From a virus, in UHGV virus genome UHGV-0171440: a DNA stretch of 20,676 nucleotides. One strand, 5' to 3'. Shown piece after piece: positions 2,696-12,463 of the stretch. The notes beneath the pieces were generated by a model. It was not told the origin of the DNA and ran no database searches. It saw only the letters and a list, made by a program, of their open reading frames with translations. Position 1 is the stretch's first letter, and every line of letters begins with the position of its first letter. Made by a program: the position numbers and the translations under genes.

Positions 2696-3322
2696 TCAAT
2701 GAATCCATTCCTCGCCGCGCAGTTTTGTCAGCATTGGCTGAGCGTTCTTTACGACAAAATTGTTGGTATCAAGATTCTTCATTTCACGAAGAAGTGATTT
2801 CTTGGTTTCTTCTGACATATAGCGAGTCTCATATGCAATATCGTAAATTCTTCCTGAAAGCTCAGAACCAATTTGCTTCATTCCTGGGTAGATGTGTTTG
2901 CACATTTGTTGACTCTTCTCCATCCACAATTGTAAGTAGCAGAGATTAACCAGTTCTTCGTCAGTAAACTGTTTTGCAATCGGTGAGCATTCTGCCTGCC
3001 GATCCAAAATATCCAGCACCCAGCGGCGGAACTCTTTTGCTACAGGAGTGCGAGCAAACATCGCGATTAGGTGGGCACCGCGTAGTGAGAAAACTCGCAC
3101 TTTTTTGCGATAATTTCCTGAGGTACTCACTTCGAGTACCTGAGTCATTCCGGCGCTAAACTCATCGCTATACTTGTTATAAATCATTGTTACTGCACGA
3201 CTATTTGCGTATTTAAGTGCAGATGCAATATTAGATGATGTAAACCAAACACCATGCATATCACGGGTGGGCGCCAACTCAACTCCGTGGAAGTTGTAAT
3301 CTGATTTTGCTACAATGTTCAT
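2696..3322 (-). CDS. Antirepressor (Ant-like) with a Bro-N domain, about 208 aa
   Basis: Start set at the internal ATG (MNIVAKSDYNFHG...) preceded by AAGGAA-n6; N-terminal half resembles the Bro-N antirepressor fold (…VAKEFRRWVLDIL). The longer ORF in the track runs into the arc-like gene in another frame. Confidence 0.75.
   Translation of the reverse strand: MNIVAKSDYNFHGVELAPTRDMHGVWFTSSNIASALKYANSRAVTMIYNKYSDEFSAGMTQVLEVSTSGNYRKKVRVFSLRGAHLIAMFARTPVAKEFRRWVLDILDRQAECSPIAKQFTDEELVNLCYLQLWMEKSQQMCKHIYPGMKQIGSELSGRIYDIAYETRYMSEETKKSLLREMKNLDTNNFVVKNAQPMLTKLRGEEWIH
3308..3316 (+). promoter_or_regulatory. Candidate extended -10 promoter element (TGcTACAAT) for a sar-like antisense RNA
   Basis: TGn plus TACAAT on the plus strand just inside the 5' end of the Bro-N antirepressor gene; no good -35 (TGGAAG, 3/6). 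Confidence 0.35.
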
Positions 3323-3396
3323 GTTAGTTTCCTTGCATACGGTTACTGACATAGAGGCCCGGTTTGTGTTCGCGCACTGCCGGGCTTCGCTATTTT
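3323..3396 (+). ncRNA. Candidate sar-like antisense RNA (about 70 nt) spanning the antirepressor RBS and the arc-ant intercistronic region
   Basis: Position and length mirror the P22 sar RNA as I remember it; it would cover the complement of the antirepressor RBS and end at a plus-strand hairpin (GCCCGG/CCGGGC, 3357-3385) followed by a T-rich tract. Confidence 0.4.
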
Positions 3397-3398
3397 TA
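3356..3398 (+). terminator. Plus-strand terminator-like hairpin in the arc-ant intercistronic region
   Basis: 6-7 bp GC stem with a structured 17-nt loop, then TTCGCTATTTTTAT. The T-run is displaced 8 nt from the stem, so this is a moderate call. Confidence 0.4.
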
Positions 3399-3563
3399 TG
3401 TCCTAGCATTCTTCTCTCCAATCAGTCCGTACACTTTTCTCAATTGATAAATAAGTTCCGTGTTGAACTGTCGACACTCTTTTTCTCCATTTCTTTCAAT
3501 CGCCTTCCTTACATCCTCTGGGAAACGAACCTTGCGTTGATACATGTCTTTTGCTTTTTCCAT
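3396..3563 (-). CDS. arc: Arc-like ribbon-helix-helix repressor, 55 aa (absent from the ORF track, which only lists ORFs of 60 aa or more)
   Basis: Hand translation of the minus strand gives MEKAKDMYQRKVRFPEDVRKAIERNGEKECRQFNTELIYQLRKVYGLIGEKNART; AAGGAG Shine-Dalgarno 5 nt upstream; strand-helix-helix pattern and position upstream of ant match P22 Arc. Confidence 0.65.
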   Translation of the reverse strand: MEKAKDMYQRKVRFPEDVRKAIERNGEKECRQFNTELIYQLRKVYGLIGEKNART

Positions 3564-3593: not shown

Positions 3594-3601
3594 CAGTCAA
3601 A

Positions 3602-3630
3602 ATTGTCACACCGTGCGTCATTGAAGTCAA
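3602..3630 (-). promoter_or_regulatory. Candidate promoter for arc-ant (Pant-like)
   Basis: On the minus strand: -35 TTGACT (complement of 3625-3630), 17-bp spacer, -10 GACAAT (complement of 3602-3607). Confidence 0.4.
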
Positions 3631-3649
3631 CCCCACCGTGGGGCATAAT
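3621..3649 (+). promoter_or_regulatory. Candidate promoter for the mnt-like gene (Pmnt-like), overlapping the arc-ant promoter face to face
   Basis: -35 TTGAAG (3621-3626), 17-bp spacer, -10 CATAAT (3644-3649); the two -35 hexamers overlap within the near-palindrome TTGAAGTCAA. Confidence 0.45.
3631..3643. promoter_or_regulatory. Palindromic operator candidate 2 (CCCCACCGTGGGG)
   Basis: Second perfect 13-bp palindrome, 50 bp from the first; fills the spacer of the mnt promoter and abuts the -35 of the arc-ant promoter. Confidence 0.5.
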
Positions 3650-3686
3650 TTACTTATTGTGAATTTTTCCTGTTTGGACTAATGGT

Positions 3687-4061
3687 ATGAGTAGAGAAGA
3701 CCCTCAACTTCGGATTAGGCTTCCTGTTGAATTAAAAAAAATAATTGAAGCGTCATCAAAACAAAATAATCGTTCTATGAATGCTGAGATTGTCACTCTG
3801 CTTGAGTTGGCGATTCGTGTTTGTCGTGATTTTGGGCCGGAGGATGGTCCTATCGTTCAGCAGTTTAAAGAACAACTAGATGCGATAAACAGAAAATATG
3901 ATAAAATCGAGCATGAAAAACTTATACCTCAACTTTTAGAAATCATAGAAAAACAGAAAAAACAAGTAGATAAACTTATTAGCATGGTTGAAAGATCAAT
4001 TCCTCTTTCAGAGGAATATAAGCAGAAATATCTTGGTGATGACAACAAAAAACCCACCTGA
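3687..4061 (+). CDS. mnt: Mnt-like ribbon-helix-helix repressor with a long C-terminal extension (124 aa)
   Basis: N-terminus MSREDPQLRIRLPVELKKIIE...NNRSMNAEIV aligns with P22 Mnt (MARDDPHFNFRMPMEV...NGRSMNSELL) from memory; divergent from arc-ant as in P22 immI; the C-terminal ~80 aa are K/E/Q-rich and probably coiled coil. Confidence 0.8.
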   Translation: MSREDPQLRIRLPVELKKIIEASSKQNNRSMNAEIVTLLELAIRVCRDFGPEDGPIVQQFKEQLDAINRKYDKIEHEKLIPQLLEIIEKQKKQVDKLISMVERSIPLSEEYKQKYLGDDNKKPT

Positions 4062-4079
4062 CGGTGGGTTTCATTTCTT
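4045..4079. terminator. Bidirectional intrinsic terminator between the convergent mnt-like and lipoprotein genes
   Basis: Hairpin AACCCACC-TGAC-GGTGGGTT flanked by an A-run (4047-4052) on one side and TTTCATTTCTT on the other; the mnt stop codon TGA sits in the loop. Confidence 0.6.
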
Positions 4080-4497
4080 AATCTTGCTTCGTGGAAGGTG
4101 TAAGAGATGCGTTTGCCTCTTTTGGCTTCAAGGTATACATCCCACCATTAAATGGATCAACAGCAAGCCAACCAATTAACCCACCAAACACAAGGTTTCC
4201 ACCAATATACCAACCATTAGCATTGGCTTTGATTGGCAGGGTAACTGGTTCGTACCCATCCTTTTCCATAGTGATCTGGTAGCTCTTTTTGCCAAAATAA
4301 CTACCATCTGACTTGGAAAGAGTTACTCCTTGTGGAGTTTTACCTTGCGCAACAATCACACCTGATTCATCTTTTACCTTAAAGCTCGCACCAGAAGGAT
4401 TGCTGTTCACTTGCACAAGTTGCGTTTCATCACCAACAATAGTTGCGCACCCAGATAACATGATAGCGCCAGCAACGACGCTAATAATCCTCTTCAT
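4078..4497 (-). CDS. Lipoprotein with a PEGA-like domain, about 139 aa
   Basis: Start set at MKRIISVVAGAIMLSGC (signal peptide with lipobox LSGC); mature region has PEGA-like motifs (SNPSGASFKV, GKTP, KDGYEPV) and a Gly/Trp-rich hydrophobic stretch (GWYIGGNLVFGGLIGWLAV). Domain call is from memory of the family pattern. Confidence 0.7.
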   Translation of the reverse strand: MKRIISVVAGAIMLSGCATIVGDETQLVQVNSNPSGASFKVKDESGVIVAQGKTPQGVTLSKSDGSYFGKKSYQITMEKDGYEPVTLPIKANANGWYIGGNLVFGGLIGWLAVDPFNGGMYTLKPKEANASLTPSTKQD

Positions 4498-4963
4498 ATC
4501 AATTTCCATTTCGTGAAAACCACAAACATGCTAATAGCAAAACAAAATAATGTGAAGTGCGTACATAAAAAATGTGCGTTTAATAACCACGAGCACGCAG
4601 AGAACTCGAAGAATAATCACACCAACTACACGAAAAGCTAAATACAGACATTAAATATTGTGCAATAGTTATAAATACAACATTTAGTACACACTAAAAT
4701 TATTATACATAAATATATCATTAAAATGATAATCAAGCCGGTTCACACCTCGGCTTTTTAATGTGCGGTTCGCAGAACTCCACAAGGCCACTTTCAAATA
4801 GTGGCGCACTCATTTTTGGCAGTTTTCCCAGATTGAGATTTTTCATCATATCTTGAGATACTAATGGTTTAACCGATAACACTGCACAAAAAGCACAAAC
4901 TTCCCTTTTCTTTTGCCCATAGGATCAGCCCAGTTATGGCTAATTGCTGCAATAGGAGGGCAT

Positions 4964-5860
4964 GTGATTATTGGTAATAGGGTAATGGTTGAGGATAAAG
5001 GTGGACTTACCGCCAAGGACAAAGTGAACGAAAGTTCAAATCATCCTGAATATGAATACAGGATGGTATCTTTATCCATGTCATCAAACAATGCCGCAGC
5101 AATCACCCGTCGCGATATCTCAATCCATATATTTGACGGCGAACCTTTAACCAGAGGGGGGCGCACGCATTATAAGAGCATGTTTGAAAAGGATCTTTCA
5201 GAAAACAGATATATAAAAGCCAATATTAATATGGATTCAGTATCTGATAATATCTTTTGCTTATCCGCAACTGATAGTGGAATGCTTCCAGTCCGACCAT
5301 CTCAGATTATGATATCTATACGTGAAATAAGAGGAGGTAAGTCACCAGAAACATACTGCGGCAAATTTTATTTCAATGATGAAAATGAAGAAAGAGAGTA
5401 CTCTTTTAAGAAGGGAGATAACTCACTTTTCATTTATCTAAATCTTGATTCTTCTATCTTTTCCGACATATTTAACAGCTTAAAAAATGGAGACACGACA
5501 ATTGAATTTGAGATCAACTTTCCTGCTTACGCAGACTGGCTAGATTGGATGGCGGGGGGAGGTTGGCCTACGACATATATCATCAATCCAGCACGTGATG
5601 ATGAAAACTTCATCTCCATAACGAGCATATCGACCTCCCAATCAGCTAATTGGAGAGTTGAAGATGAAGAAACTGAAGTCATTAAAAATGATGACACTTG
5701 CAATTATGAAAATGATATTGAACATAAAGATGTAAATGCATCAATCATTGCCACCAATGAACTTATATCTAACCATTCTATCCACACAAAACGGTTAACA
5801 TCTTACTTAGCAATAATCACATTTTGCTTAATAATATTAACTATTAAGGTTTGTTTCTAA
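4964..5860 (+). CDS. Hypothetical acidic, Ser/Asn-rich protein with a single C-terminal transmembrane anchor; start uncertain (TTG 4913, GTG 4964 after AGGAGG, or ATG 4985)
   Basis: Long ORF opposite to the late operon and convergent with the gp16-like gene; visibly AT-rich relative to the late genes; C-terminus LTSYLAIITFCLIILTIKVCF is a hydrophobic tail anchor; no catalytic motif recognised. Confidence 0.7.
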   Translation: MIIGNRVMVEDKGGLTAKDKVNESSNHPEYEYRMVSLSMSSNNAAAITRRDISIHIFDGEPLTRGGRTHYKSMFEKDLSENRYIKANINMDSVSDNIFCLSATDSGMLPVRPSQIMISIREIRGGKSPETYCGKFYFNDENEEREYSFKKGDNSLFIYLNLDSSIFSDIFNSLKNGDTTIEFEINFPAYADWLDWMAGGGWPTTYIINPARDDENFISITSISTSQSANWRVEDEETEVIKNDDTCNYENDIEHKDVNASIIATNELISNHSIHTKRLTSYLAIITFCLIILTIKVCF

Positions 5861-5911
5861 CAGCCGTCCTTGGCTGACTGTATGGTGACAACCAAGTAGA
5901 TTTTCGCTCCC

Positions 5912-8041
5912 TTATTGTATTTTTGATTGTGCGTCTGTATCTGCGCTATCCTGTTGAGATAACCACGTGGTAAACCCAAGACGTGCAATTGTGCGCCTGT
6001 CACGTTCTGGAAGTGATTCAAAAAAACGCCTCCAGTGAGGAGAGCGCCTGATGCGAGATTCGGTAACATGGTCAGGCGCTTTGCCAAGCAGATTTTTAAC
6101 CGCACTCTGGAAAGCTGGTGAAGAAATTAACTTATCTGCGGCATCCGTCGCCCCTGCACCGCCTGCAATCTGGGCTTTACGTGCAACCATTGTGCCAATA
6201 TCATGGCCTGCAACAGCCCCCAGTGGCCCATAGAATGAACCAACCATAGTACCTGCTCTTTGTGCATATTTCGATACCAGTTGATAGGGAGTCGTGACCT
6301 TACTGAATCTGTCAGTAAACTCATTCAGCTTTCCGGTAGAAATTTCGTGTGATTTGGCATTTTTTATTGCTCTGGCGACTTTATAGGCATCGTACAAGCC
6401 GCGCATTGCCTCTCTCGGCAGATGTCTGGCTAGTAATTTAAGTTGCCCATGATGCTGCATGTTTTGCCACCAGTCAGCAAAACCAGACGGATTAAAGTCT
6501 GCCCCACGTTTCCCCAGTGAAAGCATATCCCTTAGCGCTGTTCCGATAAGTTCTGTTCTTAGAGTACGTGATGGCGTGTTTTGCATTATATCTAGGAATG
6601 TTTTTGAATTTCCTTTTGCCATAGACTGGAGAGCATTTGTTGTTTTGTAAGCAATATCTCCGTTCAGCGTTTTTCCACGGAGATTTATCATCTGACTCTC
6701 TATATTTTTTCGCATGGCGACAAGGCGCTGCGCCACCTCAAAATCCCGCGCGTATCCTGAATCAGAAAGGATGGCTTTCTGGTCTTCTGACAAAGAAGCG
6801 TACAACCTTGATAAGGCTGTTCTGTCTGCGTCTTTATACGGCCCTGACTTTTTATCCAGCGCATCTCCAACAAGCCTCCTCTGCTTGTTTAAATTTGCGT
6901 ACGTCAGGATACCCTCAGGCCCCGGATTTACTGCTTTAAAAACCTGCTTTTCAATTAATTCGAGATTCTCCCATCCCCCCAAATCATCGGCGATTTTCTC
7001 CAGCATAGCGCTTGTTTTAGGGGCTTCAACTTCTGCTCCCGGAATCATGGCGGAATCAACACGCTTATATAGCTGGTCGCTACGTTGTATTAGCGCTTCC
7101 ATCCGGTTATCTATATTAGAGATATACTTTTCATTCATTCCCAGCGCATCGGAAGCACCTGCAATATCATCAATTATCCTGCCGGCACTGGAAGCCAGTT
7201 CACTTATTGCTTTGTCCTCCTGAGTTTTAAGGGCGGATCCGGTCCGTGATTTTATTGCCTGCTCTACTGCCTGATACTGAGCATTCCCTGACAGGTGAGA
7301 AGGAAGAATTGACTCAACCCCCAGTCTTTTGGCGGCTTCGGCAATGTCTTTTTGTGGTTTTATATCCAGTTCCCTTACCGCCGTGGATAAATCTGGATTT
7401 TTTTGTGTCGACAACTCTCTTAGTTTCCTTTCCGTTGTATTGGCTCCATCAATACTGGCACTCCTTCCGGTTACTTTCCCCGCCACTTTTCGAATAGCTG
7501 GGCCAGCGAGTTCTGCCACGGGACCAGCCACAGCCCCAATAGCAGCACCGGAAGCAACATCGCTATTTGTTCCATTGGCTACAATAGCCCCTTCTCCAGC
7601 ACCAAGCCCTGCGGCGGCAGCCAGCCTTGCCGCCCCTTTCGGAACCTGAGAAATAATCCCACCACCACTAACAAATGGTGCTGCTTGTCCAACGAACTCA
7701 CCAACATCTTGTGCGGTTGATGGTTTTGCCGCTAACTTCTGCTGTAGAGACTGAATTGCGGCTTGCTCTTCTGGTGTCATATCCTGAAATAGACCAACAC
7801 CTTTACCAACATCCATCAATCCACTGAGAACGCCATACATAAAACGGTCGAAACCGTTAGCATTATTAACAACATTTTCCTGCCTGGAATTTTCCTCTGG
7901 TGAAACCAAAGGTGATTGCTGCTGCTCTGGTTGGGAATCAAGCACAAAACCATCAGGAAGCTGTGAACTATCAGGAAACTGTGAGTTATCAGGTTGTTCA
8001 TCGAGCACAAAACCTTCCGGTAAGATTACATTTGCTGCCAT
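5912..8041 (-). CDS. Ejection (internal virion) protein, gp16-like, 709 aa
   Basis: Third large gene after the gp7- and gp20-like genes; Gly/Ala-rich stretches; start overlaps the gp20-like stop. Assignment is mainly by position. Confidence 0.7.
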   Translation of the reverse strand: MAANVILPEGFVLDEQPDNSQFPDSSQLPDGFVLDSQPEQQQSPLVSPEENSRQENVVNNANGFDRFMYGVLSGLMDVGKGVGLFQDMTPEEQAAIQSLQQKLAAKPSTAQDVGEFVGQAAPFVSGGGIISQVPKGAARLAAAAGLGAGEGAIVANGTNSDVASGAAIGAVAGPVAELAGPAIRKVAGKVTGRSASIDGANTTERKLRELSTQKNPDLSTAVRELDIKPQKDIAEAAKRLGVESILPSHLSGNAQYQAVEQAIKSRTGSALKTQEDKAISELASSAGRIIDDIAGASDALGMNEKYISNIDNRMEALIQRSDQLYKRVDSAMIPGAEVEAPKTSAMLEKIADDLGGWENLELIEKQVFKAVNPGPEGILTYANLNKQRRLVGDALDKKSGPYKDADRTALSRLYASLSEDQKAILSDSGYARDFEVAQRLVAMRKNIESQMINLRGKTLNGDIAYKTTNALQSMAKGNSKTFLDIMQNTPSRTLRTELIGTALRDMLSLGKRGADFNPSGFADWWQNMQHHGQLKLLARHLPREAMRGLYDAYKVARAIKNAKSHEISTGKLNEFTDRFSKVTTPYQLVSKYAQRAGTMVGSFYGPLGAVAGHDIGTMVARKAQIAGGAGATDAADKLISSPAFQSAVKNLLGKAPDHVTESRIRRSPHWRRFFESLPERDRRTIARLGFTTWLSQQDSADTDAQSKIQ

Positions 8042-9369
8042 TTTCCGTTCCTGTAAATAATTTTCTGACCAGTTTTAGGGTTGGTTGCCGTTGCGCCTTC
8101 TGATATTCCTCCGGTTGCCGCTTTTGCCTGTCCAGTGCCAGCCTGTGATGTAGGCTGCCCGGAAACATCGTCAAATAGCTTCGCTTTCCTTCTTTCAAGG
8201 CTTTTTCTTAGCCCCTGAGGAATAGTTTCTCCATATGTATCGAGATATTCGTCAACCTGCTGGTTAAACTGCTGCCCCATAGCATTGGCGTTGATTTTTG
8301 CGGCGTTAACAATGTTATCCTTTGCCTCCTGCGACAGGCCGTTTCCAGCATTAAGCTGGTCTACGTATCCTTTGATTTGTCCCCATATGCCATCAGATCG
8401 CATTACCTGAACCTGTTCGCCTTCACGAACGACTGACTGCGGGTCAAGAGATTTCATGTAGTTGAAGATAATCCCAAGTTGGGCAGCGCCAGTATTTACC
8501 TTGCTAAGGGCTTGCAGAGAGTTTGCTGCCGCTCTGACAGAGTTATAATTTTTGCCAAAATTGGTAATGTCAGAATTTAATCCCTTAATTAAGTCTGCTG
8601 ACGGCTTACCTTTTTGCCCCAGCTCCATTAGCTTCAATCCCATCTCATCTGAGTGAATTTGTGCTCGCTGAGCCCTGTCTAGTTGAGCGTTCTGGATATT
8701 TGCCCATCCTCTCGCGTTCTCCATGTCAGCCTGACGCATACTTTCATCCAGTCGCCCTTGCTCAAGGTTTCGCCCTTCCATCTGGTCTTTGATATCAAAG
8801 TACTTCTCATGACCGAGAGAAAACATCGCCATATTGCCAGCGAACTGCTGGAAGCCCTGCGGGTCGTTAAAATGCATGTCAGCAATAATTTCTGGCGGAA
8901 CGCCGAGGCGGCGCATTTCCTTCTCATTGTCCATCATGAATCGACCAAATGCGCCAGCACCCAGCGATGAGGCCACCTGTGCTTTAAGCGCCAGATTGCC
9001 AAAATCATCTCTCTGAGCGTCATCGATATACCCCATTCCCTTTCTGACTTCCTCAAACTCATCAGGAAATTCAGTAACCAGATTACGCATCTTCTCTCTG
9101 TCGCCGGACGCATAAGCATCCGCATACCCTTTCTGGAATGCCGCCTTACGTTGTTTCTGCTGCTCCTGCTGATAAATATCAGCGACGCCAGCCAGACCAC
9201 GCAGCCCTGTCAGTGCCACATTGTTTGCACCTGAGCGCTCCAGTGCGTTATTTTCCCGGATGTAGCCCAGCGTGGTGTTTATATCGCTTGCCCTGGGCGC
9301 ATTCTCATTTTGCGTACCGATGCCAGCCAGAAAACCACCAGAATTAATACCCTGTTGCCACGTAGCCAT
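8026..9369 (-). CDS. 20: Ejection protein gp20-like, 447 aa
   Basis: Position between the gp7 and gp16 homologs and size close to P22 gp20. Confidence 0.75.
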   Translation of the reverse strand: MATWQQGINSGGFLAGIGTQNENAPRASDINTTLGYIRENNALERSGANNVALTGLRGLAGVADIYQQEQQKQRKAAFQKGYADAYASGDREKMRNLVTEFPDEFEEVRKGMGYIDDAQRDDFGNLALKAQVASSLGAGAFGRFMMDNEKEMRRLGVPPEIIADMHFNDPQGFQQFAGNMAMFSLGHEKYFDIKDQMEGRNLEQGRLDESMRQADMENARGWANIQNAQLDRAQRAQIHSDEMGLKLMELGQKGKPSADLIKGLNSDITNFGKNYNSVRAAANSLQALSKVNTGAAQLGIIFNYMKSLDPQSVVREGEQVQVMRSDGIWGQIKGYVDQLNAGNGLSQEAKDNIVNAAKINANAMGQQFNQQVDEYLDTYGETIPQGLRKSLERRKAKLFDDVSGQPTSQAGTGQAKAATGGISEGATATNPKTGQKIIYRNGKWQQM

Positions 9370-10071: not shown

Positions 10072-10527
10072 CTATCTCCCGTGATTCAGGTAGTCGATTA
10101 GTTCTTCGCGTGTTGCGCTGTAAAACGTCACATCATCCACGCCTTTGAAGTATTTCCTGATGGTTCCGACACGTTTAAGGCCAACCATTGCGCAGTACAT
10201 CTGGCCGTGACGAAATTTGCGTGCAGCAAATGATGTGACACACTGGACGGAAGTGTGAGTGAGAATGAACCGCCAGAACGCCAGCCCGATTTCCTTGCTG
10301 AACCCGCGAATCTCCGGCAGGTACATGGCGTGACATTCAAAAGTCAGCGGCTGAACCTCCTGATAGTAAACAATGCCGCCAAACCGCCCGTGTACATTCA
10401 CTTCAAAATACCGACACTCCGGTTTGTAGTCGTACCCGTCACCATTGTTACTTCCGGCAATAATGTCCTTGTGGTTTCCGACGGCTTCTATCAGGTCGAT
10501 GTTTCGCGTTGGTTTGAATGTGATCAT
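10072..10527 (-). CDS. gp14-like virion assembly protein, 151 aa
   Basis: Position between the tail needle and gp7 as in P22; size similar to P22 gp14. Assignment by synteny only. Confidence 0.65.
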   Translation of the reverse strand: MITFKPTRNIDLIEAVGNHKDIIAGSNNGDGYDYKPECRYFEVNVHGRFGGIVYYQEVQPLTFECHAMYLPEIRGFSKEIGLAFWRFILTHTSVQCVTSFAARKFRHGQMYCAMVGLKRVGTIRKYFKGVDDVTFYSATREELIDYLNHGR

Positions 10528-11039
10528 CAGTCAATCAGTCCATGTAATCTGAGTACCGTTTCCAGCGCCAGAATACGCTGGCGCGCCTGCTGCAAACCTG
10601 TAGCGAGAGCCGCGACTTCGGATTGTGTGTGCGTAGTGCCGATCGTGTATGACTGATTGGCGTTGAATGAGCCAAGAAGAGGTGTACCTGTGGCTGCAGT
10701 CCATCCGGTCTGGCGGGGACCGATAACCTGAGTACCTCCGACCATATACACTCCGTCAGTATCAAGTGACGAGGCTATATGCTGCGTCCCTGCTTTGGTT
10801 TTTGAGACGCTATCCTTCTTCAGTTCTGCAATCTCATTGTCCTGTCGGTCATTATCAGCCTGCGCATCGTAGGTGGCGCTGGCAACAAACCGCAGAAAAT
10901 CAGAAGAGGTCTGAAAATTATCAGCCTGTGTCAGAACATGCAGACGGTAACTGGCAGTGAAGTTTTCCGGCAACATAGATGGTGTTAACTGATTGACCGA
11001 AAAAGGAGCATCCGTCAGTAATTTCTCATTAGCCATCAT
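10527..11039 (-). CDS. Tail needle (gp26-like), short form of 170 aa
   Basis: C-terminus ...GPRQTGWTAATGT...LRLHGLID matches the P22 gp26 C-terminus from memory; position after gp10. Confidence 0.7.
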   Translation of the reverse strand: MMANEKLLTDAPFSVNQLTPSMLPENFTASYRLHVLTQADNFQTSSDFLRFVASATYDAQADNDRQDNEIAELKKDSVSKTKAGTQHIASSLDTDGVYMVGGTQVIGPRQTGWTAATGTPLLGSFNANQSYTIGTTHTQSEVAALATGLQQARQRILALETVLRLHGLID

Positions 11040-12463
11040 TCAATCCTTACGGTACAACCTGAGACAGATAAAGGTGCCAGGGACACGAACCGGAGCTTAA
11101 AGCCAACGTTTCGTCTGACCCGGCCAATACGCGCCCACCTTATCCGTCTGTCATACTGATGCCTGCGGCTGTAGGGAACCATCACCTCCCGCCCGAAAGT
11201 GAGTCCGTCAAAAGTCGTGGAAAGGAAAAATCTTTCATCATCTCCGGTAAAGCCGGTGATGGCTTCCACCTCAAAATCGAACAGTCTTTTGTCAGGAACC
11301 TTTATCATGGGGGTGAATAACAGGTGCTCTGTCGGCGAGTCGTACTGCGATGAAATATCAAAACTTAACTCTCCCAGGACTGGCAGCTCCTTATCCCCTA
11401 CCGTGATGGCGCTTCCGTCATAGTGGAAATCAATCCCCCGATACACATCATCACCAACGCCACTTTTTAACAGGCACCATTGCGGCCCGTTCTGACTCGC
11501 GCTCATGTCATAGCACAGGGTGTGTCGCGGCAGATGCATTATCAGTAACTCGTGAGCGTCGAGACTTAAGGACTCAAGCGAGCTCGTTGCCAGCTCATCA
11601 GCCGTGTAACTCCTCAGTACCCTTTCAATCGTCGGAGTGGCAATTTTTTGCAACTGCCCCGCATCAACAAGATAAACAGACGGCAGGCCAGAAGCAGCGC
11701 TACTGATGAATGCATACGCCCCGGCGAACGGTGCTTTGCAGTGTGTCCCGGCAATACCTTTATTTACTGTCAGGGAGTTATTTGCCACATAGAGCGGCGA
11801 GGTGGCCCCCGTCGCCCCCGTAAGGGAAAAGTACTCAATACTTGATGAACCAAAGCAGACGATAAACCCCTTCCACTCTGCAACAGCCCTTATGCCATCA
11901 GGCTGAGAGTTTGCCCTGTAAAATGGCCGGAATCTGTCAGGGTGTGACTCATCTTCCAGGTCAGTAACCCCAAACAGGTCAGAGCCATCTTTAATCCACA
12001 CATACCGGGCTCCGGCACGACAGATATCCCTTACAGAGCCAATTTCATACTGGGCATATTCAACACCGTCCTCTTTCTCCGGCCAGTTCTCCAGCCACTT
12101 CACTGTGTCGTCATAGCGAAACAGAATCATTTCACCATTAGTGGCGACCGCCTGACTGGTGGCGCTACACGCCAGCGACACACGTCCGGCCCCCTGTGCA
12201 TAGCCGATGATTTTTTCCCCGCGATAGACACGGCCCCCTAGAACACGGTAGAGAATGTTCTCTCTGGTGTTGTAAATAACTCCTCTTGATTTTCCCTCAA
12301 CATCCGCGCGTTTCTTTATGCCCGGGAAAGAGCGCATGTATCCGGCTGCACTGGGGAGTTCTCTGGGAGTTGCCAGCATGTTGACCGGAATGGCATCAAT
12401 GTAATCAGCTTCGGCAAAGTCTTTCCCCGTTCCCTTAATCAGAGGTAATTGCTGAACCGGCAT
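11036..12463 (-). CDS. 10: Tail hub / head completion protein gp10-like, 475 aa
   Basis: Strong resemblance to P22 gp10 (e.g. FIVCFGSSSIEYFSLTGAT, ESHPDRFRPFYRANSQPDGI) and matching synteny. Confidence 0.85.
   Translation of the reverse strand: MPVQQLPLIKGTGKDFAEADYIDAIPVNMLATPRELPSAAGYMRSFPGIKKRADVEGKSRGVIYNTRENILYRVLGGRVYRGEKIIGYAQGAGRVSLACSATSQAVATNGEMILFRYDDTVKWLENWPEKEDGVEYAQYEIGSVRDICRAGARYVWIKDGSDLFGVTDLEDESHPDRFRPFYRANSQPDGIRAVAEWKGFIVCFGSSSIEYFSLTGATGATSPLYVANNSLTVNKGIAGTHCKAPFAGAYAFISSAASGLPSVYLVDAGQLQKIATPTIERVLRSYTADELATSSLESLSLDAHELLIMHLPRHTLCYDMSASQNGPQWCLLKSGVGDDVYRGIDFHYDGSAITVGDKELPVLGELSFDISSQYDSPTEHLLFTPMIKVPDKRLFDFEVEAITGFTGDDERFFLSTTFDGLTFGREVMVPYSRRHQYDRRIRWARIGRVRRNVGFKLRFVSLAPLSVSGCTVRIE

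Follow-up and report, generated by a model that had tools for sequence, protein, structure and literature searches.

A prophage moron for a predicted outer-membrane lipoprotein in a P22-like virus, and its relatives in prophages and bacterial chromosomes

Prophage morons for envelope proteins shape the phage resistance and the virulence of Escherichia coli and Salmonella, and envelope lipoproteins are a known kind of their cargo. The moron described here lies in 20,676 nucleotides from the UHGV virus genome UHGV-0171440 (one strand, 5' to 3'; this whole stretch is called the window). It contains one gene (4078-4497, minus strand), whose product of 139 amino acids, below called the lipoprotein, had been proposed in an earlier note on this DNA to be a receptor-masking, injection-blocking or lysogenic-conversion factor. 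The gene was already in the databases as conserved hypothetical (epsilon34 gp15, PHROG 6823). New are the boundaries of the cassette, the finding that it moves between five or more late-operon slots in phages of two morphotypes and stems from chromosomes without having diverged, the recognition of a helix as the conserved core of the protein, and the link to published expression data.

The same gene, with the promoter-like site and the terminator, is present in three Lederbergvirus phages as gene 15 of epsilon34 (ACF16641.1), GALLYPH_14 of Gally and URC09765 of vB_EcoP-720R6 (720R6). In all three it occupies the same slot, from the gene-16 homologue to mnt, and the products are annotated as hypothetical or of unknown function. 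The epsilon34 genome paper counted gene 15 as one of two "ant moron" genes of unknown function and mentioned homologues in bacteria (PMC2629481). What differs is the gene between the cassette and gene 16, which is hkcB-like in epsilon34, belongs to phrog_6067 in Gally and 720R6, and is a rare orphan in the window.

Two proven exclusion genes come close in position. Gene 15 of HK97 is, like the lipoprotein gene, a single-gene moron with its own terminator, lies in the slot between T and the tape measure gene, and goes back to a family of bacterial envelope proteins, many of whose members are not from phages. Its product is an unrelated inner-membrane protein of 62 amino acids (phrog_5031); the lipoprotein matches neither phrog_5031 nor Pfam YebO, so that on this count only the genomic slot is shared. 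HK97 gp15 has diverged from YebO at the C-terminus, whereas the lipoprotein has not diverged from its chromosomal relatives, and exclusion has been shown for HK97 gp15 but would be a possible role for the lipoprotein. The gene for SieA of P22 likewise lies between genes 16 and 9 and is expressed in the prophage from its own promoter. SieA is, however, a multi-pass inner-membrane protein encoded antiparallel to gene 16, while the lipoprotein is a predicted outer-membrane protein encoded in the same direction as gene 16. P22 SieA matches phrog_7745 (E = 9e-109), to which the lipoprotein has no PHROG match.

Among phage lipoproteins, Cor (phi80, N15, HK022) and Llp (T5) inactivate FhuA from the outer membrane and resemble the lipoprotein in being small, encoded by enterobacterial phages and located among tail genes. 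The matches to Cor (NF047972, phrog_1119) cover residues 1-20 or 1-30 only, with 13.3 bits against an NCBIfam cutoff of 31 and a PHROG E value of 7e-4; the likeness is therefore confined to the signal peptide. Bor of lambda, an Iss-like serum-resistance moron, is also a prophage-expressed outer-membrane lipoprotein, with a similar expression pattern in E. coli LF82, but no Bor family was among the Pfam or PHROG matches of the lipoprotein, and fold, size and genome position differ. Ltp of the Streptococcus phage TP-J34 is a prophage envelope lipoprotein that, according to a passage in PMC10883804, targets the tape measure protein of incoming phages; it differs in its Gram-positive host and its helical repeat fold, and neither its sequence nor its fold matches. 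Llp, Ltp and SieA show no likeness to the lipoprotein in sequence or in fold.

In architecture the lipoprotein recalls the bacterial proteins SlyB, YfgH and OsmB, which join a lipid anchor to a membrane-embedded, Gly-rich helix (GxxxG) and to a small domain in the periplasm. As oligomers, SlyB and YfgH keep the outer membrane stable under stress (bioRxiv 10.64898/2025.12.22.696046). In these proteins a hairpin of two helices precedes the globular domain, whereas the lipoprotein has a single predicted helix inside a PEGA sandwich.

The cassette and its transcription in the prophage

The window is the late region of a P22-like virus (Lederbergvirus), with morphogenesis genes about 94% identical to those of the E. 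coli phages HZ41 and IME10. On its minus strand follow gene 20, gene 16 (5912-8041), the lipoprotein gene and a terminator; the orphan gene (4964-5860, plus strand) comes after gene 16. Past the terminator lie a convergent gene of the Arc/Mnt type for 124 amino acids (3687-4061, plus strand) and then genes of the Ant type. The insertion between gene 16 and the immI module that the earlier note had described is thus confirmed, with the orphan as one further gene in between. The lipoprotein gene runs in the direction of the late operon.

The cassette consists of the following parts.
About 4047-4558 (512 bp), minus strand: whole moron cassette (promoter-like site, gene, terminator), a conserved and mobile unit
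4528-4556, minus strand: sigma-70-like promoter found by consensus scan, with -35 TTCACA (4556-4551), a spacer of 17 nt and -10 TAGCAT (4533-4528)
4503-4507, minus strand: Shine-Dalgarno-like GGAAA, 5 nt upstream of ATG 4497, kept in all six copies
4078-4497, minus strand: coding sequence of the lipoprotein, 139 amino acids and the stop codon TAA (4078-4080)
4049-4072, both strands: bidirectional intrinsic terminator found by terminator scan, with a stem of 9-10 bp and 5 GC pairs

When positions 3600-6000 were compared by megablast with phages and with 5426 complete E. coli genomes, only about 4047-4558 matched, at 90-95% identity. The phage matches were epsilon34, Gally and vB_EcoP-720R6. The cassette was found in 127 of the 5426 E. 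coli genomes (about 2%, including the Crohn's-associated LF82 lineage), always in the chromosome and in one copy per genome. A six-way alignment showed that the homology begins exactly at an invariant CTTCAC and stops just past the T-run of the terminator. The GC fraction of the cassette is 0.36-0.42, as against about 0.47-0.56 in the structural genes.

The -35 element is invariant in the six copies and the -10 element reads TAGCAT, TAGGAT or TAAGAT, with T1, A2 and T6 retained; the promoter was called at the level of the consensus. The earlier note had put the gene behind an AT-rich promoter region of its own, where the promoter-like site was indeed found. The AT-rich stretch extends over 4401-4800 (GC fraction 0.36), but of this the cassette takes in no more than about 60 bp ahead of the start codon. 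At the other end, the terminator serves both the lipoprotein gene and the convergent Mnt/Arc-type gene, whose TGA (4059-4061) lies in the hairpin loop. As the note had held, it is bidirectional: it scores on both strands, the hairpin is kept in the six copies, and its counterpart in epsilon34 is annotated as a rho-independent terminator. An Rfam search of the whole window gave no match.

Translation was assigned to ATG 4497 because the upstream in-frame ATG 4509 reads ACG in two of the six aligned copies, those of Gally and 720R6; this alternative start (MEIDMKR...) was therefore rejected. The open reading frame is a real gene and not a chance one, and it is under strong purifying selection: at E<=1e-3 the lipoprotein has 689 homologues, and the ratio of nonsynonymous to synonymous substitution rates (dN/dS) is 0.04-0.12 against five orthologues. 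The amino acid identity to epsilon34 gp15, GALLYPH_14 and URC09765 is 96-98%. PHROG 6823, annotated as "unknown function", matches the protein over its full length (E = 1.5e-85).

The published RNA sequencing data for E. coli LF82, the host of the Gally prophage, were re-analysed by Misson et al. (PMC9928086); the values of their S1 Table, in log2(fpkm+5) (fpkm, fragments per kilobase per million), are as follows (pairs as tabulated).
GALLYPH_14 (LF82_139; 97% identical to the lipoprotein), lysogeny broth (LB) overnight: 6.22 / 4.79
GALLYPH_14, Dulbecco's modified Eagle medium (DMEM): 9.82 / 10.19 after 1 h and 10.49 / 10.24 after 6 h
GALLYPH_14, macrophages: 11.03 / 11.0 after 1 h and 9.39 / 9.5 after 6 h
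GALLYPH_12, adjacent injection gene: 3.6-4.2 in all conditions
C2 repressor: 8.9-12 across conditions

GALLYPH_14 is thus transcribed autonomously from the repressed prophage, because the flanking late genes are silent (3.6-4.2) while GALLYPH_14 reaches 9.4-11, which in DMEM and macrophages is about 20- to 45-fold above overnight LB. In DMEM and after 1 h in macrophages it is, after the repressor, the most transcribed gene of the prophage, at a level comparable to that of slyB. Its profile parallels that of the Bor lipoprotein moron of another LF82 prophage (low in LB, up in DMEM, highest in macrophages) and, in the same dataset, runs differently from those of pagP (PhoP), spy (Cpx) and osmB (stationary phase). 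Misson et al. had listed Gally as a phage lacking a moron because their 5-fold cutoff was applied to LB only, where GALLYPH_14 is 3.3-fold above background (PMC9928086). The lysogenic conversion suggested in the earlier note is to this extent supported, namely by the prophage expression of the 97% identical Gally gene.

Two side observations concern this transcription. GALLYPH_13, which fills the sieA slot of Gally and belongs to phrog_6067, also reaches a log2 value of about 10-11 in DMEM and macrophages with late genes silent (in phage Gally, L003, GALLYPH_14 is at 6034-6453 and GALLYPH_13 at 6558-7073). A look by eye for a PhoP box in the promoter of the window gave only poorly spaced TGTTT-like half-sites, and no claim is made.

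The cassette is a classical phage moron in the sense of Juhala and Hendrix, being a single gene with a promoter and a terminator of its own. Promoter and terminator are conserved and mark its edges. Its composition deviates in GC, it occurs in at least five slots, and it is missing from P22 as well as from the majority of the P22-like phages with matches to the structural genes of the window. Expression from a repressed prophage is documented for the 97% identical GALLYPH_14, that is, by RNA sequencing of the orthologue.

The lipoprotein and its relatives

The protein is made up of four parts, given here with their positions in the window.
4447-4497, minus strand: signal peptide and lipobox, residues 1-16; codon of Cys17 at 4447-4449, residue +2 Ala
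4219-4428, minus strand: PEGA/transthyretin-like beta-sandwich, residues 24-93
4138-4218, minus strand: Gly/Trp-rich hydrophobic element, residues 94-120, with a predicted helix 95-112 (GWYIGGNLVFGGLIGWLA) followed by VDPFNGGM
4105-4137, minus strand: two C-terminal strands, residues 121-131, that pack back on the sandwich

The N-terminal part reads MKRIISVVAGAIMLSGC up to the cleavage mark and continues with ATIVGD. It passes the rule-based test of the PROSITE type for lipoproteins (charged n-region, hydrophobic h-region, [LVI][ASTVI][GAS]C, Cys at 15-35): after K2, R3 and the hydrophobic core, VVAGAIMLSGC matches, with LSGC at residues 14-17. Cys17 is present in all of 145 diverse relatives, and the residue following it is A, S, T or G and never Asp. 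Lipidation of Cys17 and sorting to the outer membrane are therefore predicted, the latter because residue +2 is Ala, never Asp in the family, and because in one relative the module is fused to an OmpA-type barrel. In this relative (P0141, 365 amino acids) lipobox, PEGA domain and Gly-rich helix are followed by a C-terminal OmpA-type beta-barrel (E = 2.3e-15). Long Pro/Ala-rich tails are seen in other relatives, as are SH3 or SHOCT domains.

The PEGA-like domain claimed in the earlier note holds by homology through the relatives and by fold, but not by the protein's own Pfam score. The match of residues 28-93 to PEGA (PF08308) has 17.7 bits (E = 0.0033) and stays under the gathering threshold of 20.8 bits, whereas 18 of 65 diverse relatives match PEGA, the best at 5e-9. 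AlphaFold2 predicts a confident sandwich for residues 24-93, and with an alignment of 145 sequences the overall predicted local distance difference test score (pLDDT) is 86. The fold class is thus established. A PDB sequence search with the lipoprotein gave matches at chance level only (E>0.2), and NCBIfam only a weak partial match to LEPBI_I2678, itself an uncharacterised family.

Residues 94-120 are the most conserved region of the family, with a mean consensus frequency of 0.77 among 145 relatives, as compared with 0.48 for the sandwich; W96, Y97, G100, N101, G105, G106, G109, D114, P115, G118 and M120 are invariant or nearly so. The helix 95-112 is uniformly hydrophobic (mean hydrophobicity <H> 0.71, hydrophobic moment 0.08) and contains GxxxG at 95-99 and 105-109. 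The two strands after it (pLDDT 92-96) return to the sandwich, and therefore both ends of the hydrophobic element lie in one compartment. Between the lipidated Cys and the first strand of the sandwich there are only about 7 residues, which should keep the domain close against the membrane. Read most simply, these features describe an outer-membrane lipoprotein with a Gly-rich helix that is buried in the same membrane and may self-associate. The Gly/Trp-rich segment of the earlier note is thus real and the best conserved part of the family; lipobox, promoter, terminator and position were borne out as well.

Relatives of the lipoprotein occur in the following places.
E. coli P22-like prophages (L012, L013): next to the gene-16 homologue, on its downstream side
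E. coli lambdoid prophages (P0062; 5 of 5426 genomes): between tail chaperone T and tape measure
Proteus prophages (P0071): between tail chaperone T and tape measure
Lambdoid prophages of other genera: H/M (L034), K/I (L029), I/J (L016-18 and L026-28)
Chromosomal, non-phage: Enterobacter, Xenorhabdus, Lonsdalea, a contig with a nif region, many Halomonadaceae and other Proteobacteria (L019, L105, L109, L022-24 and others)

P22-like relatives are also found in "ant moron" slots; in all, relatives occupy five or more different slots in late operons of the P22 and lambda types. Terminators of their own were found for the copies of Proteus and Pseudescherichia, as for most relatives in lambdoid tail operons. 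In three of the E. coli lambdoid prophages with the lipoprotein gene between T and tape measure (L008, L010, L011) a porin gene (Porin_1/Porin_4, about 10261-11424) lies between gpM and gpL, which makes two envelope morons in one tail operon.

The family comprises 3780 representative clusters (50% identity, E<=1e-3), and in Photorhabdus, Lonsdalea and Xenorhabdus the chromosomal copies are syntenic across species. Phage copies are 66-86% identical to chromosomal ones. In a small tree a chromosomal Enterobacter copy nests among the phage-borne copies, with 83-86% identity over the mature core. The family is mainly one of ordinary chromosomal lipoproteins, from whose form the phage copies have not diverged. 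Phages have therefore taken up this gene on repeated occasions and exchanged it without visible divergence; with its low dN/dS (0.04-0.12) the gene gives no sign of a new function in the phage copies. A function for the cassette gene would also inform a large bacterial lipoprotein family, with thousands of clusters across the Proteobacteria and an unusually conserved membrane element.

What the lipoprotein may do in the lysogen

Most likely, though we hold this tentatively, the lipoprotein is an outer-membrane envelope or host-adaptation factor that acts through its membrane-embedded Gly-rich helix. The precursor would be exported, lipidated at Cys17 and, with Ala at +2, sorted by the Lol system to the inner leaflet of the outer membrane. 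The PEGA-type sandwich, about 7 residues further on, would be placed directly under the membrane, and helix 95-112 would dip into it, where it would probably make contact with other copies of itself or with a conserved membrane component of the host. Transcription from the repressed prophage would depend on conditions, as in LF82 (low in overnight LB, high in DMEM and macrophages), and the lysogen would gain altered outer-membrane properties, that is, envelope robustness or host adaptation. Chromosomal homologues presumably do the same job in genera with a native gene, and the moron carries an envelope lipoprotein of bacterial origin, which prophages of the P22-like and lambda-like kinds have more than once taken from, and exchanged with, chromosomes. 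A precedent is given by SlyB and YfgH, Gly-zipper lipoproteins of the outer membrane that act as its stabilisers (bioRxiv 10.64898/2025.12.22.696046); the likeness would be one of logic and not of homology, being architectural only. The pattern of conservation fits action on a conserved envelope component of the host better than action on a fast-evolving phage protein.

Several points weigh against this reading. A functional study of any family member was not found in the literature, and the lipoprotein has no match to the Pfam glycine-zipper or Rick_17kDa_Anti families at E<=1. The AlphaFold2 confidence for the helix is moderate (pLDDT 62-76), and with a shallow alignment the helix is disordered. 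In both phage types the gene adjoins DNA-delivery genes, in slots of proven exclusion genes, as one would expect of an exclusion factor. The expression data come from an orthologue with a slightly different promoter spacer and -10 element and do not separate growth phase from medium or host signals.

Superinfection exclusion is a possible explanation, although a less likely one, and it is not mutually exclusive with an envelope or host-adaptation factor, since both can hold. The lipoprotein, placed under the outer membrane of the lysogen, would block incoming phages either by inactivating a conserved outer-membrane or periplasmic host component for DNA delivery in the manner of Cor and Llp, or by obstructing the trans-periplasmic channel formed by ejection or tape-measure proteins. 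This would agree with transcription of the moron from the repressed prophage (Gally orthologue) and with its position, always in or beside DNA-delivery gene clusters and in the direction of the late operon. The lambdoid copies occupy the exact T/H slot of the proven exclusion moron HK97 gp15 (PMC3594210), which likewise comes from a bacterial family, YebO, and the P22-like copies are part of the "ant moron", the place of sieA in P22 (PMC2629481). Late-operon slots also hold morons that are not for exclusion, however (the porin gene in L008 and L010, lom, bor), so that position is weak evidence. sieA is absent from all six P22-like contexts that were examined. It is present in only 22 of 66 P22-like phages (PMC10883804), and six sieA-free contexts carry no statistical weight, (2/3)^6 being about 0.09 and the contexts not being independent.

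Other results speak against exclusion. Neither the lipoprotein nor three of its relatives had a match in PADLOC-DB v2 at E<=0.1. The phage copies are under strong purifying selection and remain close to chromosomal copies (66-86% identity, Enterobacter 83-86%), in contrast to the types of SieA, which are about 25% identical to each other (PMC10883804). The carrier phages have unrelated entry machineries and receptors, which makes a receptor-specific role unlikely.

A proposal that would join the two readings is that lipoproteins with PEGA domain and invariant Gly/Trp-rich helix make up a very widespread and hitherto unrecognised class of outer-membrane organisers, single-helix functional relatives of SlyB and YfgH, which temperate phages of two unrelated morphotypes would spread as a moron because it hardens the envelope against DNA delivery from many kinds of phage and against host stress. 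We consider it doubtful; if true, it would mean receptor-independent, broad-spectrum exclusion from the periplasmic face of the outer membrane.

It is improbable that the lipoprotein is an accessory of the lytic cycle, made late and conditioning the envelope, for example by preventing ejection into debris, as Llp of T5 does, or by tuning lysis. In every prophage context seen the gene has the direction of the late operon, and antiterminated late transcription should read into it. But it has its own promoter and terminator, the Gally orthologue reaches high transcript levels with the flanking late genes silent, there are chromosomal homologues with no phage around them, and the gene lies outside the lysis cassette and its product does not resemble o-spanins. 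A role as o-spanin or in lysis was ruled out by position, size and expression in the lysogen.

Least probable is a bitopic inner-membrane protein with residues 95-112 as stop-transfer helix and a cytoplasmic C-terminus, acting like SieA or HK97 gp15, for although the helix has 18 uniformly hydrophobic residues with a Kyte-Doolittle peak of about 1.6, this is only borderline for a transmembrane segment, residue +2 is Ala and not Asp, and the topology was rejected because both ends of the helix join the exported domain, residues 121-131 being predicted (pLDDT 92-96) to complete the periplasmic sandwich, and because in P0141 an outer-membrane barrel of the OmpA type follows the segment.

Neighbouring genes in the window

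The gene between the cassette and gene 16 was considered separately.
4964-5860, plus strand: orphan gene, 298 amino acids; open reading frame from TTG 4913, likely start GTG 4964 after AGGAGG (4954-4959)

In P22, sieA directly follows gene 16 in antiparallel orientation; by position, its analogue in the window is therefore the orphan and not the lipoprotein gene. The product has a C-terminal hydrophobic anchor. It had no match in Pfam, PHROG or PADLOC and none in 50,697 phage records, and among 5.8 billion proteins only 12 homologues were found (E. coli, Salmonella, Citrobacter, Chimaeribacter). The orphan is a candidate for a novel exclusion or defence gene. The earlier note had considered that the lipoprotein might act together with its product. 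The evidence does not support this: the cassette turns up in more than five further contexts that lack the orphan and co-occurrence was seen nowhere, by which a functional link was ruled out. The lipoprotein moron is independent of this neighbour.

Between the 5' edge of the cassette and the orphan gene lies an AT-rich, non-coding spacer of about 400 bp (4559-4963). Neither a search of 4540-4965 against the complete E. coli genomes nor Rfam gave a match. The spacer contains a terminator-like hairpin on the plus strand (4735-4756) with a T-run and no obvious gene upstream, there being only an open reading frame of 42 amino acids (4513-4641).

On the other side of the cassette, the product of the Mnt/Arc-type gene (3687-4061, plus strand) has 124 amino acids as compared with 83 in Mnt of P22, with an N-terminal ribbon-helix-helix and a long C-terminal extension. 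The last codons of the gene and its TGA lie within the stem and loop of the shared terminator, so that the C-terminus of this protein is partly encoded by the cassette. Beyond it two genes of the antirepressor type follow in tandem on the minus strand (1879-2658 and 2696-3421), of which one belongs to phrog_1726 and the other encodes an Ant with Bro-N and P22_AR_C domains (phrog_245).

The ejection genes (5912-9369) are outside the best phage matches, which begin at about 9158; they have hence diverged much further than the head genes. The gene-16-type ejection protein (5912-8041, minus strand) has 709 amino acids and begins with a duplicated motif, ILPEGFVLDEQPDNSQ ... QLPDGFVLDSQPEQQQ.

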